Assembly: GCA_027053075.1 (NCBI GenBank)
Contig: JALUEE010000100.1
Location: 1 to 26,576, forward strand
Direction: 5' to 3'
Length of the DNA: 26,576 bases
From: a candidate division WOR-3 bacterium
GTDB lineage: Bacteria > Hydrothermota > Hydrothermia > B15-G9 > WFZT01
This document shows positions 4,670 to 10,937 of the stretch, piece after piece. Both the position numbers and the translations under genes were made by a program. The notes under the pieces were generated by a model that made no database searches, was not told where the DNA came from, and saw only the letters and a program-made list of their open reading frames with translations. The first letter of the stretch is position 1. Each line of letters begins with the position of its first letter.

Positions 4670-4744
4670 GAGGTTAAGGTTTATTAAAATGGTCTGCTCT
4701 CAATTATTCCCTTACCTGAGATGTGTAGGGGAAAAATCGATTTC

Positions 4745-4799
4745 TTTAAACAAATTGCAAATGAGATTATAATTTTCACGGATTAATCTTTTAAGGAGG
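4745..4799 (+). promoter_or_regulatory. Putative promoter and RBS of the STAND-TPR gene
   Basis: TTTAAA (4745-4750), 17 nt, TATAAT (4768-4773). SD AAGGAGG (4793-4799) lies ahead of the GTG at 4805. Confidence 0.5.
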
Positions 4800-4804
4800 G
4801 AGAA

Positions 4805-7800
4805 GTGAATTTTGAAGATGTGATTAACATAATAGCCTCTATCATTGATTCACTGATACCCATACCTGCAGGCACAATTGGGTTTATGTTTGTAAATAAA
4901 TGGAGAAGGAATAGAATCCTCGCAAGGGTTATTCAAGCTACGTTAAAAGACTTCCAGAAATCAATGAAGATGCGGGGAACTGTTTATGAGACTGCTGCAT
5001 CCTGCCTGATTAAAGCTTTCGAGGATGAAAAAGACACGGTTAAAAACCTCGTTAAGGAAGCTCTTGAGGAAGGTGAGATTAAATCAACAGACAGGTTCAG
5101 GGAAACACAGTGTTTTCAGGGAATACCAGATGATATTCTTGCTGAAGTAAGTAATGAAGTTGTAAAACGAATACTCGGGAGTTTATGGGAATACAAGGAA
5201 TTCAGGGATGATGCAGCTTCTTTTTTAATTAAAACCCAGGCTGAAAGACTCGAACAAATTAAGAAGAGATTAGACGAATTCAAAAATGAATTGCCAGAAA
5301 CTTTGAGAGAGTCGATTAAAGCTATTATTACCGAATATAAGAGAGAAGAAGCTCTTGAGCAATTGAGGACAACAACTGCAAAGTTTCCTGAAGGACAGGA
5401 ATTTTCTTTCCATGAGCTTAAGGCGCAGTATCGGCTAATCCCATTTACAGGAAAAGAATCGAAGGCATTAAAAGATGAGATTGTTCAATGGGCAAAGAAA
5501 CTTAATGGTGTGGGGTTACGCTGGCTCTATGGTGCAGGTGGCGCTGGTAAGACACGACTCATGGTGGAAGTGGGCGAGGAACTTAAAAATAGCGGATGGA
5601 ACGCCTATTTCCTCCCCTTAGAAGAATGGGAAAAAGAGCACATGAAGTATTGGGTTGATAATGACAGGCCTACAATGCTCATTGTTGATTATGCTGAGAT
5701 GCGTAAAACGGAGCAGATAACAGACCTGCTAAATGCGGCTATTGGAGCCAAATCTGATGACACCAATCCACTTGCACTTGTATTGCTCACTCGTGAAGCA
5801 CCGAGAATTAAAGGTTCACAATCCAACCTGTTATCTGATGCCCTCCAAACATGGTCAGTTCAGGGGACTAACTCTTTGAGGCGTGAAATTTTTAACAATG
5901 CACTGCGAGAGGCAAAGGCTATCCCGCCACTCGATGAAATTGATAGAGTCGAACTTTTCAAAAAAGCGGTTGAACAGTTTAGAGAGCGTTTGAGAATATC
6001 TTCTAAAGCTATATCTTATGATGCTAATGAATTGCCTTCTCGTCCACTTGCAATTATTTTGCTTGCATTCCTTTTTGCACAGGGGCGTCGAGATGTTGAA
6101 AGCTCTAAGGAAGAGGAAATTTACAGTGCTGTGTGGGATTGGGAAAAGGGGAAGTGGGAGAAGACCTTGAAGGCTCTCGGACTATGGAAAAATCAGCCTG
6201 ATTTGATGAAAGAGGCGATAAATCGCATAGAGCAGTTGCAGGTGGCAGCTACATTGGGTCTTGGGTTTTCTAATAAAAAAGATAAAGATATCGTGAATTT
6301 CTGGCAAAAAGTGGATAATCTAACTGGTAAATTTCCTCTACTGGATGGAAAAGACCTTATCAGATTGGCTGGTCAGATACCACAGCTATTTGCAGGTCAT
6401 GGAAAGGGTATGTCTCTTGTGCCAGCTATTACGCCTGACCCATTAGCTGATTTTGTTATGGCAAATCTTGTTATTCCAATTTCATCACTCAATATACAGG
6501 GTTACGAAGATGATTTATGGGACTTACAAACAGTTATGGAATCACATCCACTGGCAATTATTGCATGGGCAGCACTACCTGAGCCAATTAAGCTTGTGTC
6601 CATAGAGTTAACAGAAGAATTTTGGGTCTTCAACATGTTGAAGATTATAACTCGTTTGAGGGATGCGTATCCTGATGCAGGCCAGGTTCTGGCCAAAATC
6701 CTTGCACTATGGTTAGAGCACACCGTCCGTGAACTTTATACCAAAAATCCGGATTTCACAAGGAAATGGCTCAAAATCTGGGAACATGTGCTTCCATCTC
6801 ATCCAGAACGCACAGTAGCACTGAGAGAATTGGTAGCTTCCTATTACAAATCACAATATTTTATAGCAACAGACGAAGCTGAAAGGGCTTCTTGGGCTAA
6901 CAATCTAAGCGTCTCACTTTCGGCACTCGGCAGAAGAAAAGAGGCATTGGAAGTTGCAAGAGAAGCTATGGAAATTCGCCGTAGATTAGCGAGTGAGAAT
7001 CCACAGGCATTTGAACCTGACCTCGCTATGAGCCTCAACAATCTTGCCACTTCCCTTTCTTATACAGGGCGAAGGGAGGAGGCACTGAAGATTGCAAGAG
7101 AAGCTGTGAAAATTAGTCGCAGACTTGCGAGGAAGAATCCACAGGCTTTCGAACCTGACCTCGCAGTGAGTCTCGCCAACTTTGCCGCACTCCTTTCTGA
7201 TGCGGGACAAAGGGAGGAGGCACTGGAGGTTGCAAGGGAAGCAGTAGCTCTGTACCGCAAATTGGCTAAACAGAATCCACAGGCATTTGAACCTGACCTC
7301 GCTATGAGCCTCAACAATCTTGCCACTTCCCTTTCTTATACAGGGCGAAGGGAGGAGGCACTGAAGATTGCAAAAGAAGCAGTGGATTTATACCGCAAAC
7401 TTGCAAAAGTGAGTCCACAGGCATTTGAACCTGACCTCGCTATGAGCCTCAACAATCTTGCCGCACTCCTTTCTGATGCGGGACAAAGGGAGGAGGCACT
7501 GAAGGTAGCAAAAGAAGCTGTAGAGATTCGCCGCAGACTTGCGAGTGAGAATCCACAGGCATTTGAACCTGACCTCGCTATGAGCCTCAACAACCTTGCC
7601 ATTTTCCTTTCTGAAGCAGGGCGAAGGGAGGAGGCACTGAAGATTGCAAGAGAAGCTGTGGAAATTAGTCGCAGACTTGCGAGGAAGAATCCACAGGCTT
7701 TCGAACCTGACCTCGCTATGAGCCTCACCAATCTTGCCGCACTCCTTTCTGATGCGGGACAAAGGGAGGAGGCACTGAAGGTAGCAAAAGAAGCTGTAGA

Positions 7801-8920
7801 GATTCGCCGCGGACTTGCGAGTGAGAATCCACAGGCATTTGAACCTGACCTCGCTATGAGCCTCACCAACCTTGCCACTTTCCTTTCTGATACAGGGCAA
7901 AGGGAGGAGGCTCTGAAGGTTGCAATAGAAGCTATGAATTTATACCGCAAACTTGCGAAGGAGAATCCACAGGCATTTGAACCTTACCTCGCTATGAGCC
8001 TCACCAACCTTGCCAAATTCCTTTCTGATACAGGGCAAAGGGAGGAGGCTCTGAAGGTAGCAAGAGAAGCTGTGGATTTATACCGCAAACTTGCGAAGGA
8101 GAATCCACAGGCATTTGAACCTTACCTCGCTTTGAGCCTCAACAACCTTGCTGCATTTCTTTCTGAAACAGGGCGAAGGGAGGAGGCACTGAAGGTTGCA
8201 ATAGAAGCTATGAATTTATACCGCAAACTTGCGAAGGAGAATCCACAGGCATTTGAACCTTACCTCGCAGGTAGCCTCACCAACCTTGCCAACAGCCTTT
8301 CTGATACAGGGCGAAGGGAGGAGGCTCTGAAGGTTGCAATAGAAGCTATGAATTTATACCGCAAACTTGCGAAGGAGAATCCACAGGCATTTGAACCTTA
8401 CCTCGCTATGAGCCTCACCAACCTTGCCAAATTCCTTTCTGATACAGGGCAAAGGGGGGAGGCTCTGAAGATTGCAAGAGAAGCTGTGGAAATTCGCCGC
8501 AAACTTGCAAAAGAGAATCCACAGGCATTTGAACCTGACCTCGCTGCGAGCCTCGACACCCTTGCCAACCGTCTTTCTGAAACAGGGCGAAGGGAGGAGG
8601 CACTGAAGGTAGCAAGAGATGCAGTGGATTTATACCGCAAACTTGCGAGGGAGAATCCACAGGCATTTGAACCTGACCTCGCAAGAAGTCTCGGTGCACT
8701 GGGCTATGCCCTATCAAATTTGAATAAACCAGAGGAGGCAATGGAATCTTTTGCCGAAGGGATAAAAATTCTTATACCTTATGCACAAAAGTTGACACAG
8801 GCATACTTCCCTATACTAAATGAACTTCTTGATGGCTATTTGCAGGCAGAAAATAAAACTGGCAAAGAGCCAAATTCAAAACTTATTAAGCAAGTTGAAG
8901 CTTTACTTAACCCCGAATAG
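4805..8920 (+). CDS. NLR-like protein: unknown N-terminal helical domain + STAND-type P-loop NTPase + TPR repeat array
   Basis: 1371 aa. Walker A GAGGAGKT (5531-5554), Walker B MLIVDYAE (5675-5698), sensor-like VLLTR, GxP-like SRPLAI, WHD-like PDPLAD, and 46-aa TPR-like repeats at the C-terminus. Strong SD. Confidence 0.85.
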   Translation: MNFEDVINIIASIIDSLIPIPAGTIGFMFVNKWRRNRILARVIQATLKDFQKSMKMRGTVYETAASCLIKAFEDEKDTVKNLVKEALEEGEIKSTDRFRETQCFQGIPDDILAEVSNEVVKRILGSLWEYKEFRDDAASFLIKTQAERLEQIKKRLDEFKNELPETLRESIKAIITEYKREEALEQLRTTTAKFPEGQEFSFHELKAQYRLIPFTGKESKALKDEIVQWAKKLNGVGLRWLYGAGGAGKTRLMVEVGEELKNSGWNAYFLPLEEWEKEHMKYWVDNDRPTMLIVDYAEMRKTEQITDLLNAAIGAKSDDTNPLALVLLTREAPRIKGSQSNLLSDALQTWSVQGTNSLRREIFNNALREAKAIPPLDEIDRVELFKKAVEQFRERLRISSKAISYDANELPSRPLAIILLAFLFAQGRRDVESSKEEEIYSAVWDWEKGKWEKTLKALGLWKNQPDLMKEAINRIEQLQVAATLGLGFSNKKDKDIVNFWQKVDNLTGKFPLLDGKDLIRLAGQIPQLFAGHGKGMSLVPAITPDPLADFVMANLVIPISSLNIQGYEDDLWDLQTVMESHPLAIIAWAALPEPIKLVSIELTEEFWVFNMLKIITRLRDAYPDAGQVLAKILALWLEHTVRELYTKNPDFTRKWLKIWEHVLPSHPERTVALRELVASYYKSQYFIATDEAERASWANNLSVSLSALGRRKEALEVAREAMEIRRRLASENPQAFEPDLAMSLNNLATSLSYTGRREEALKIAREAVKISRRLARKNPQAFEPDLAVSLANFAALLSDAGQREEALEVAREAVALYRKLAKQNPQAFEPDLAMSLNNLATSLSYTGRREEALKIAKEAVDLYRKLAKVSPQAFEPDLAMSLNNLAALLSDAGQREEALKVAKEAVEIRRRLASENPQAFEPDLAMSLNNLAIFLSEAGRREEALKIAREAVEISRRLARKNPQAFEPDLAMSLTNLAALLSDAGQREEALKVAKEAVEIRRGLASENPQAFEPDLAMSLTNLATFLSDTGQREEALKVAIEAMNLYRKLAKENPQAFEPYLAMSLTNLAKFLSDTGQREEALKVAREAVDLYRKLAKENPQAFEPYLALSLNNLAAFLSETGRREEALKVAIEAMNLYRKLAKENPQAFEPYLAGSLTNLANSLSDTGRREEALKVAIEAMNLYRKLAKENPQAFEPYLAMSLTNLAKFLSDTGQRGEALKIAREAVEIRRKLAKENPQAFEPDLAASLDTLANRLSETGRREEALKVARDAVDLYRKLARENPQAFEPDLARSLGALGYALSNLNKPEEAMESFAEGIKILIPYAQKLTQAYFPILNELLDGYLQAENKTGKEPNSKLIKQVEALLNPE
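6875..8806 (+). repeat. Intragenic tandem array of 138-bp units: 12 near-identical units (7013-8668) plus a degenerate first and last unit
   Basis: GAACCT(G/T)ACCTCGC recurs at 7013, 7151, 7289 ... 8669 with an exact 138-bp period. Confidence 0.95.
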
Positions 8921-9005
8921 ACAAATCCTTGGGGTAAATTCATTGAGAGTGGAAATCCTTATTCTCTATGGTGGGCTGAATAAAATTATTTAATCGGGTA
9001 TGGTC

Positions 9006-10937
9006 TCACACAATCAATCTAAATATAAATCCCACAACAGTGGCGACTGAGAGGCCCAGTAAAATGGAGTAAAGCATTATTTTTTTGCCGTACTCTTTCC
9101 AGATGATACCGATGGTGGAGATGCAGGGGATGTAAAATGTTACAAACATGGTGAAGACAACGATTTGCTCCTTTGTCATAACGAGGTTGATCTTCCCGAT
9201 CTCTGTTCCAAGGGCCTGGGAGAGCATCACCAGTGTCAGCTCTTTTCTGAGGATTCCAAAAATCAGTGTAGTTCCGACCTTCGTTGGAAGACCCAGCAAG
9301 GTATGCACCAGAGGGGAGAATATCAGGTTGATGTAATAATCCCAGTTAAGGTACTGGATGACACCCAGCACAATACTACCAATGATAAGGAGTGGCCATG
9401 CGAGATATATAAAGTTTTTGACCTGCAGCCACGTTTTATCAAATGTGATTTTAAGAGACGGAAATTTGTATGAGGGTATTTCCATAAGAAGACCATAAGA
9501 AGGAGTCTTGAAGAAGCCATTTAAAATTTTTCCCATCAGTGCCACCACAAAAATGTTGAAGATAAAGAAAAATAATGCCCACCAGGGGCCAAGAAAATAG
9601 GCTACAAGTGCAAAAATAACGGTAATTCTTGCCGAGCACGGCACGAGAGGGATGAGGAGTGCCGATAGAATCCTATCCCTTTCATTGTCAAGTATCCTTG
9701 TTGCAGCTATTGCAGGCACGTTGCAACCATATCCAAGGATAAATGGGATCACAGATTTTCCATGAAGCCCCATTCTATGCATGAGACCGTCCATCAAGAA
9801 AGCCACCCTTGGCAAATATCCGAGGTCTTCGAGGAAAGAGAGCAAAAATACGAGAGGGATGAAGTAGGGGAGTACAATCCCGATTCCACCCGCGATCCCC
9901 TGCAGGAGCCCATTCGCAATATAAAGAAGAAGTTTGTTATGTATCTGCTGTGGAAGTGCTGATATCAACTTATCAAATGGAGATGTGAAAAGCTCCTCCA
10001 ACGGTGCCCCGATTTTAAAGATTAGATAATAGAAGACAAAAAATACGACTGCAAGAATGAAATATCCTAAAATCGGATGCATAACATAGGCATCAAGTTT
10101 ATCATCGATAGACTTTTCGGTCCGGTGCTTGATTTTCATGACCTCTTCAGCGATCCTCATGGAGATGTTGTGTCTCTCGCCGTGGATCACATCGGGTGCA
10201 GGAGAGCCAATGATTTCTTCAAGCTCCTTTCGGTATTTCTCTGCGAGTCTTAGTAGCTCCGGATAGTCTTTAACAAGATTTACAAAATAATCATCATTTT
10301 CGAGCAGCTTTATCGCAAATAGCCTTGGTGGTATTTCATACTTTCCGTCAATCTTCTCTCTAACCATCTGTGTGAGGGCTTTTATCCTATCCTCAACAAC
10401 TTTAGAACAACTGTATGTTTTTGGCTTCGTACCGGTTTTGATAACTTTTAAGATGGTCTCAAACAGCTCCTTCAGGCCCTTTCCGTGAACGGCAACCGTG
10501 GGAATAACAGGTATTCCGAGAATTTTTTCAAGTTTTTTTGCATCAATCTCAATTCCCTTGGATTTGGCCTCATCCATCATGTTTAAAGCAATTACCATGG
10601 GTTTGCCAAGCTCCATCAGCTGCAATGTAAGCTCGAGGGAGCGGGAGAGAAGTGTGGCATCCATGACGTTGATGATAATGTCAACTTCCTGCGTCAGAAG
10701 GTACTTCAGTGTTTCGTGCTCGGCCATGTCCTGCGAGGAAAGCGAGTACGTGCCGGGAAGGTCTATGACATCAAAAATTCTGCCCTTGTAATTCATACGG
10801 CTCTTTGTGAACTGGACCGTTGTGCCGGGAATGTTGGAAGTCTGAGCCTTTAGACCCACAATTGCATTAAAAAGGGTACTCTTCCCGCAGTTTGGCTGTC
10901 CCACGAGGGCTATTTTTATTGGGCCGTACTTCCTCAT
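9006..10937 (-). CDS. feoB: Ferrous iron transport protein B
   Basis: GQPNCGKS, DLPGTYSL and NMMD GTPase motifs; LEDLGYLPR, GYGCNVPA, PCSAR and YIPC membrane-domain motifs. Confidence 0.97.
   Translation of the reverse strand: MRKYGPIKIALVGQPNCGKSTLFNAIVGLKAQTSNIPGTTVQFTKSRMNYKGRIFDVIDLPGTYSLSSQDMAEHETLKYLLTQEVDIIINVMDATLLSRSLELTLQLMELGKPMVIALNMMDEAKSKGIEIDAKKLEKILGIPVIPTVAVHGKGLKELFETILKVIKTGTKPKTYSCSKVVEDRIKALTQMVREKIDGKYEIPPRLFAIKLLENDDYFVNLVKDYPELLRLAEKYRKELEEIIGSPAPDVIHGERHNISMRIAEEVMKIKHRTEKSIDDKLDAYVMHPILGYFILAVVFFVFYYLIFKIGAPLEELFTSPFDKLISALPQQIHNKLLLYIANGLLQGIAGGIGIVLPYFIPLVFLLSFLEDLGYLPRVAFLMDGLMHRMGLHGKSVIPFILGYGCNVPAIAATRILDNERDRILSALLIPLVPCSARITVIFALVAYFLGPWWALFFFIFNIFVVALMGKILNGFFKTPSYGLLMEIPSYKFPSLKITFDKTWLQVKNFIYLAWPLLIIGSIVLGVIQYLNWDYYINLIFSPLVHTLLGLPTKVGTTLIFGILRKELTLVMLSQALGTEIGKINLVMTKEQIVVFTMFVTFYIPCISTIGIIWKEYGKKIMLYSILLGLSVATVVGFIFRLIV

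Follow-up and report, generated by a model that had tools for sequence, protein, structure and literature searches.

An accessory STAND NTPase with 14 TPR units and a helical head, a likely immune sensor, in a candidate division WOR-3 bacterium

Avs proteins (EfAvs5, PDB 9jap; Avs7-24, PMC13581612) are encoded by single genes and combine an effector, a STAND NTPase and a helical sensor, with effectors swapped among members; in these proteins sensing leads to oligomerisation, upon which the cell stops (Lee et al. 2026, PMC13581612). In the same census, 198 of 589 STAND clades are defence-associated, and the layout alone is therefore no proof of defence. Bacterial and fungal NLRs of the NB-ARC/NACHT-TPR type possess tetratricopeptide repeat (TPR) units that are 80-90% identical, for which reshuffling was proposed (Dyrka et al. 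10.1101/2020.01.06.895854), and bacterial NACHT (bNACHT) proteins with NNH heads have been described (Kibby et al. 10.1101/2022.07.19.500537). Here, we analysed a gene in a 26,576-nucleotide stretch of DNA (the window) from a candidate division WOR-3 bacterium (GenBank assembly GCA_027053075.1, contig JALUEE010000100.1), in which a single unbroken open reading frame (ORF) at 4805-8920 (+ strand) with a GTG start encodes a protein of 1371 aa, referred to as the STAND-TPR protein. A preliminary description of this sequence had recognised an N-terminal domain, a P-loop NTPase and 14 repeats in the ORF, and this three-part layout is borne out by its motifs and 46-aa units. Our analysis itself gives the three-part anatomy, a STAND-type model fold, presence/absence among close relatives, effector swapping and mosaic repeats, and we read the gene as an accessory one that on its own encodes a STAND NTPase with 14 TPR units, whose helical head is non-enzymatic and which likely serves as an immune sensor. 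The gene and its parts are:

4805-8920, + strand: STAND NTPase-TPR gene, 1371 aa (ORF, Pfam, model fold match)
4805-5380, + strand: all-helical N-terminal domain (aa 1-192), presumed effector, NNH-like on weak evidence
5381-6094, + strand: P-loop NTPase and helical domain 1 (aa 193-430), with Walker A, Walker B DYAE, R330 and LPSRPLA
6095-6880, + strand: helical, winged-helix-like region with PDPL (aa 544), and helical arm (aa 431-692; conserved motif, model)
6881-8812, + strand: array of 14 x 46-aa TPR units (138-bp units), presumed sensor (Pfam, unit comparison)
8813-8920, + strand: C-terminal capping segment, divergent among alleles (allele comparison)

The NTPase module (aa 193-560) carries GAGGAGKT (aa 243, nt 5531), LIVDYAE (aa 292, nt 5678), a sensor-1-like LVLLTR (aa 325), LPSRPLA (aa 410) and PDPL (aa 544). 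K249, D295 and R330 are invariant in alignment A1, leaving Walker A, Walker B and the sensor-1 arginine intact, and among the best 150 family matches 133 have Walker A, 90 of these 133 with DYAE. The hallmarks of STAND proteins are a GxP motif in helical domain 1 and a His-containing motif in the winged-helix domain (WHD); LPSRPLA and PDPL sit at the expected GxP and His positions, but lack the Gly and the His, respectively. With the repeats removed, Pfam gave sub-threshold matches to ATPase_2 (E 1.5e-4), AAA_22, nSTAND_NTPase5 (E 1.4e-3) and AAA_16, and neither the NACHT nor the NB-ARC profile matched the STAND-TPR protein at E up to 10. While the Walker B of NACHT proteins is of the DGxDE type, that of the STAND-TPR protein is DYAE. 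Against nSTAND_NTPase5 (PF25199), the protein reached 18.9 bits compared to a curated cut-off of 34, and its close relative P0022 reached 34.8 bits. Searches of PDB sequences returned generic P-loop or coil matches only.

An AlphaFold model of aa 1-745, built from 15 sequences (predicted local distance difference test (pLDDT) 77.8, predicted template modelling score (pTM) 0.70), had as its best Foldseek matches EfAvs5 (9jap, E 1.1e-5), the NRC/Sr35 resistosomes, SAMD9, NLRC4 and Apaf-1, at TM-scores of about 0.2-0.3 for these STAND matches. VIA-align placed Cdc6/ORC proteins, other AAA+ proteins and Avs5 level at Z 12.5-14, with Cdc6, ORC2, Avs5 and NRC2 at Z 13-14, the alignment to Avs5 (Z 13.0 over 368 residues) being the longest listed. 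Avs5 is the best structural match, yet it shares only 11-12% identity with the STAND-TPR protein, and the resemblance to NB-ARC proteins is one of fold only, with no NB-ARC profile match. The model indicates a P-loop domain of the AAA+ type, akin to Cdc6/ORC, with helical and winged-helix-like domains after it; the region aa 431-692, which also holds the helical arm, contains a putative WHD, so labelled by its position and by alignments to Avs5, NRC2 and ORC2. Judged from the model, the NTPase is a STAND NTPase closest to nSTAND5 yet under the cut-off of that family; the class named in the preliminary description thus stands.

The 14 TPR-like repeats proposed before were confirmed by a Pfam match to TPR_10 (E 3e-102) and by 14 units, each exactly 46 aa long, at aa 693-1336. 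In DNA, units 2-13 share 72-99% identity, and units 1 and 14 are degenerate caps. Units 2-13 are mosaic: the first 54 bases of unit 2 are exact to unit 4 and its last 84 agree with unit 6 at 99%, units 9 and 12 are exact in their first part and just 88% identical over the remainder, and half-units of the non-adjacent pairs 2/4, 9/12 and 8/11 are 100% identical. The mosaic units therefore point to recombination or conversion within the array. In the Pfam register, in which unit position n is TPR position n-2, mean variability over 9 proteins is highest at unit positions 11, 12, 4, 31 and 15, and positions 4, 11 and 15 correspond to TPR positions 2, 9 and 13, which are ligand contacts according to Magliery and Regan (PMC1261162). 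The Asn at TPR position 6 is conserved, and groove positions are more variable than the remaining positions in all 9 proteins. Relatives have from a few up to 12 or more such units. In two close homologues, L006:397-3867 and P0003, an extra C-terminal helical domain with 'LxGERDP' follows the repeats, once in L006 and about three times in P0003.

Searching 1.84 billion cluster representatives with aa 1-700 yielded 1513 relatives with E no higher than 0.001, of which 37 reached 1e-30. Domains were scanned in 53 hand-picked relatives and in 15 more. Enzymatic N-terminal heads were found in 16 of the 53 (TIR 5, PNPase 4, GT4 2, trypsin 2, CHAT 2 and phosphoesterase 1), an NNH1 head in 3, and the heads of the 15 further relatives include TIR/SEFIR, HD-CE and trypsin. 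nSTAND_NTPase5 was matched by 36 of the 53 (E up to 5e-4) and exceeded its cut-off in 6 of them and in 2 of the 15. Such heads belong to the effector classes listed for conflict STANDs (Kibby et al. 10.1101/2022.07.19.500537; Kaur et al.). The swapped enzymatic heads of distant members thus appear as the signature of conflict proteins, in keeping with the kinship to conflict-effector STANDs that had been suggested. In a tree of the NTPase segments (IQ-TREE quick search, midpoint-rooted, without outgroup; 93 rows, 4 of 97 dropped as short), the head label changes 27 times, the label 'nucl' standing for a motif unconfirmed by Pfam. The STAND-TPR protein lies within a 43-row branch (Shimodaira-Hasegawa-like approximate likelihood ratio test (SH-aLRT) 96). 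Either of two helical heads is present in 41 of these rows, and switches between the two types occur within the branch. Alignment scans listed mostly distant relatives (at least 39 loci, at least 35 loci and at least 1 viral locus) and are uninformative on the range of the close branch; the viral-contig relatives, at least one, are distant, and no RNA holder of the gene was among the matches listed.

Several members of the wider family were inspected individually. Trypsin-headed members are found at L066:3054-5999 and L064:1775-5071, and the small ORF upstream in L066 presumably resembles Trypco2 by its motif. L072 and L073 have an N-terminal segment resembling, by eye, a papain-fold peptidase, L072 comprising two fragmented copies. 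Two weak matches in G025 were dropped for their other architecture, with the P-loop region alone in common; the G025 paralogues L008:6127-9057 and L009:5828-8731 look by eye like cyclase-NTPase-TPR proteins, a different STAND-like architecture.

The head itself is one of a cluster of 27 heads and opens with a hydrophobic helix-GxPG-helix, the 19-aa mean hydropathy of this hydrophobic N-terminal segment being 1.68. It contains no enzyme motif, no Pfam match under E 0.03 and no direct NNH match. In a separate head model (pLDDT 73.7), aa 1-30 are of poor confidence, and among the Foldseek and VIA-align matches listed there was no Bell/HeLo/MLKL entry. An identifiable effector, as assumed at first, is thus not borne out. 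Several links to NNH were obtained: the sister helical heads match NNH1 (P0059 above cut-off), hhalign of the head cluster against the sister cluster holding these NNH1 matches gave a probability of 63% (E 7e-5), 1 of 15 aligned members of the head's own cluster matches NNH2 (E 6e-4), and the Atlas NNH2 look-alike score of the head is 0.86, which serves as a lead only. These separate links agree with one another, which weakly suggests an NNH-like head. That the head acts on membranes is a guess from its hydrophobicity and position; it stays a guess because the head has no fold match and no 'MEPIS' motif, which is characteristic of Bell/Hell-type membrane killers and Avs2 (10.1101/2024.11.07.622273).

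By profile search, 6 of the 272 genomes available for the phylum, including this one, carry the gene, and none of 5 congeners (82-96% complete) does; a scan of genome contigs with a single protein query gave no match. The sites of the four strong same-class homologues are unrelated to this one and no common neighbour was seen, two of the homologues being near contig ends. In the congener G004, both flanks are 93% identical and the gene is absent from the same site, where unrelated DNA of 433 bp replaces the following segment:

4681-9005, no strand assigned: accessory segment, replaced in G004 and present in coexisting forms in other metagenomes

Gene-bearing and gene-free forms both occur in runs X2, X4 and X8, which belong to three other studies. 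The gene-free contigs from these runs turn G004-like at 4677-4680 and at 9006, and other contigs span the gene at roughly 90% identity; the left junction is bridged by one X8 contig, and the gene end is joined to the feoB side in X2 and X4 contigs. As contigs were placed at 85% likeness, more than one related species may contribute to these forms, and depth does not equal the share of cells. Neither a target-site duplication nor a terminal inverted repeat was found at the segment, and in G001 and G002 synteny breaks on the feoB side. The gene is therefore accessory and not core: as the check across relatives called for in the preliminary description revealed, it is patchy and absent at the same site in G004. 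The third-position GC content of head and arm is 0.34, below the 5th percentile (0.38) of the genome's long ORFs, and that of the NTPase part is 0.39, slightly above it; the low value of head and arm hints weakly at a foreign origin.

By analogy with other STAND proteins, the STAND-TPR protein would be held in a closed state by nucleotide before triggering. A foreign protein would bind the TPR groove, ligand binding would make the NTPase oligomerise, and the heads, once clustered, would arrest the cell or kill it, as in Avs proteins. The weakest parts of this scheme are that the trigger may be a phage protein and that the head may kill by inserting its hydrophobic first helices in the membrane.

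A number of observations weigh against an immune sensor of this kind. None of the 43 rows of the protein's own branch has a recognised enzymatic head, and the conflict signature is therefore that of the wider family and not of this branch; moreover, 2 of the 53 scanned relatives have helix-turn-helix (HTH) heads. Foldseek and VIA-align (best Z 5.4) yielded no fold match for the head, which is evidence of neither difference nor novelty, and 'MEPIS' is not present in it. A permutation test of groove variability gave p 0.001, but its comparison set includes buried positions, groove variability is a general TPR property (PMC1261162), and the variable positions 12 and 31 are not on the Magliery-Regan contact list. 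The array-wide ratio of nonsynonymous to synonymous polymorphism (pN/pS) between repeats is 0.62, and positive selection is therefore not demonstrated. There is no defence island: housekeeping-type genes or contig ends surround the gene here and at 4 same-class homologue loci. PADLOC 2.0 (library 2023) gave one weak, repeat-borne match (E 1e-4), and its Avs or NACHT models were matched by none of 34 aligned relatives. The latter check returned no system, in agreement with the earlier statement that no named system fits.

A further-reaching version of the immune reading, which we regard as unlikely, is that the protein would be the type example of a branch of bacterial NLRs. In this branch, the NNH-like head would cause death as an effector of a new, non-enzymatic kind, and the array of 46-residue TPR units would be a recombining receptor, with half-repeat shuffling rewriting the groove as in fungal NLRs; natural populations would maintain the gene as a presence/absence polymorphism at a single site.

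Among the alternatives, the one that survives best, though still unlikely, is a conflict sensor with an adaptor head, in which oligomerisation would recruit a separate effector or the trigger would be an invader other than a phage or a signal of damage to the host. The head has no recognisable enzyme or pore fold, the same genome has a further NLR-like gene whose head is CHAT-like, and non-catalytic adaptors are known among bacterial NACHT heads (Kibby et al. 10.1101/2022.07.19.500537). However, no partner gene accompanies the STAND-TPR gene at any close locus read, and a single-sequence query found no stand-alone copy of the head among 228 candidates.

A non-immune signalling or regulatory STAND protein of the MalT/AfsR kind, which would read a metabolite or host protein while its head binds DNA or polymerase, seems quite improbable to us. 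It would suit the isolation of the gene among housekeeping genes and the HTH heads mentioned above, and six sigma-factor entries are among the top 50 weak VIA-align matches of the head (best Z 5.1). However, these Z values do not stand out from the noise that helical bundles give, the head has no HTH Pfam match at E up to 10, and the patchiness, one-site polymorphism and repeat shuffling of the gene, together with the enzymatic effectors of the wider family, suit conflict better than regulation.

A mobile passenger from a conflict family, which would have lost its effector function and serve no purpose at present, its repeats having grown by slippage, is very unlikely. In its favour, a close homologue in a Thermoflexales metagenome-assembled genome (L020:801-3206) is split over several frames, being either broken or an assembly error, the gene-bearing form has the lower coverage in X2 and X4 (by summed contig depth, a rough measure) and, of 31 listed allele differences, 13 are non-synonymous. 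Against it, the 4.1-kb ORF is unbroken and retains every catalytic motif, the listed indels of other populations are frame-keeping (one of 6 nt at 6278 and a -1/+1 pair at 5872/5875) and the head is conserved across its 27-protein cluster.

Upstream of the STAND-TPR gene, two signals were located:

4745-4773, + strand: sigma70-like promoter consensus TTTAAA-17-TATAAT (10/12; consensus match only)
4793-4799, + strand: ribosome-binding site AAGGAGG, 5 nt upstream of the GTG

Of the promoter and ribosome-binding site claimed for the gene earlier, the latter is present, while the former is a consensus match, one of 4 sigma70-like sites in 251 nt where 0.7 were expected. No + strand terminator was found within 8850-9100. 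The left neighbours, on the opposite strand and divergent, are GATase, GCS2-like and enolase-family genes, and the right neighbours, on the opposite strand and convergent, are feoB and feoA. The gene had been placed alone between unrelated metabolic genes; it does stand alone, with all neighbours on the opposite strand, but feoAB functions in iron transport. Elsewhere in the window, a CoiA-like nuclease gene (533-1555, Pfam E 9e-14), present in G004 too, lies in a lower-GC stretch, and GC-rich palindromes resembling repetitive extragenic palindromic (REP) elements occur at 75-112 and 180-400, as they do in L010 (6188-6620). The stretch 180-400 has 215 blastn matches genome-wide, and similar REP-like elements occupy the gene-free site of G004. 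The second NLR-like gene of this genome (G000:C27:45697-50033, + strand) encodes a CHAT-like head (by eye), the P-loop GIGGSGKS and near-identical 42-aa TPR units, with N gaps within the array in the assembly.

Compared to the described systems, the STAND-TPR protein is like Avs proteins in its effector-STAND-helical sensor order, single gene and swapped effectors, but has no PADLOC Avs match and no enzymatic head, and its sensor is a near-identical tandem array. It shares near-identical TPR units with the NLRs of Dyrka et al., but its NTPase is neither NB-ARC nor NACHT by Pfam, no Bell gene or amyloid partner is adjacent and the units are of 46 aa. As in bNACHT proteins with NNH heads, sister heads match NNH1 and one own-cluster member NNH2, but the protein has no NACHT module and its own head no NNH match. 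nSTAND_NTPase5, common in relatives, is matched by the protein itself only below the cut-off. In the literature searched, with subscription papers and the main clade tables of Lee et al. outside its scope, we found no description of this family or of 46-residue TPR NLRs; full-text searches found no paper applying 'nSTAND5' to a protein, and the motifs and names of the family had no match in 7 supplementary files of Lee et al. 2026 (main clade tables excluded). Nevertheless, the label of an undescribed system is too strong: the layout is standard, nSTAND_NTPase5 touches the NTPase, and the census of 589 STAND clades (Lee et al. 2026) may cover the family. Layout, swapped effectors and homogenised repeats have all been described before.

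The architecture by itself would not surprise a specialist. Most characterised bacterial STAND sensors have enzymatic heads and come from E. coli-like hosts, and the STAND-TPR gene may offer a compact single-gene case for the action of NNH-like helical heads. It may likewise offer a case for target change by repeat shuffling in near-identical bacterial TPR arrays, which was proposed for bacteria by analogy with fungi (Dyrka et al. 10.1101/2020.01.06.895854). Forms with and without the gene coexist at one site and thus provide natural alleles to compare.

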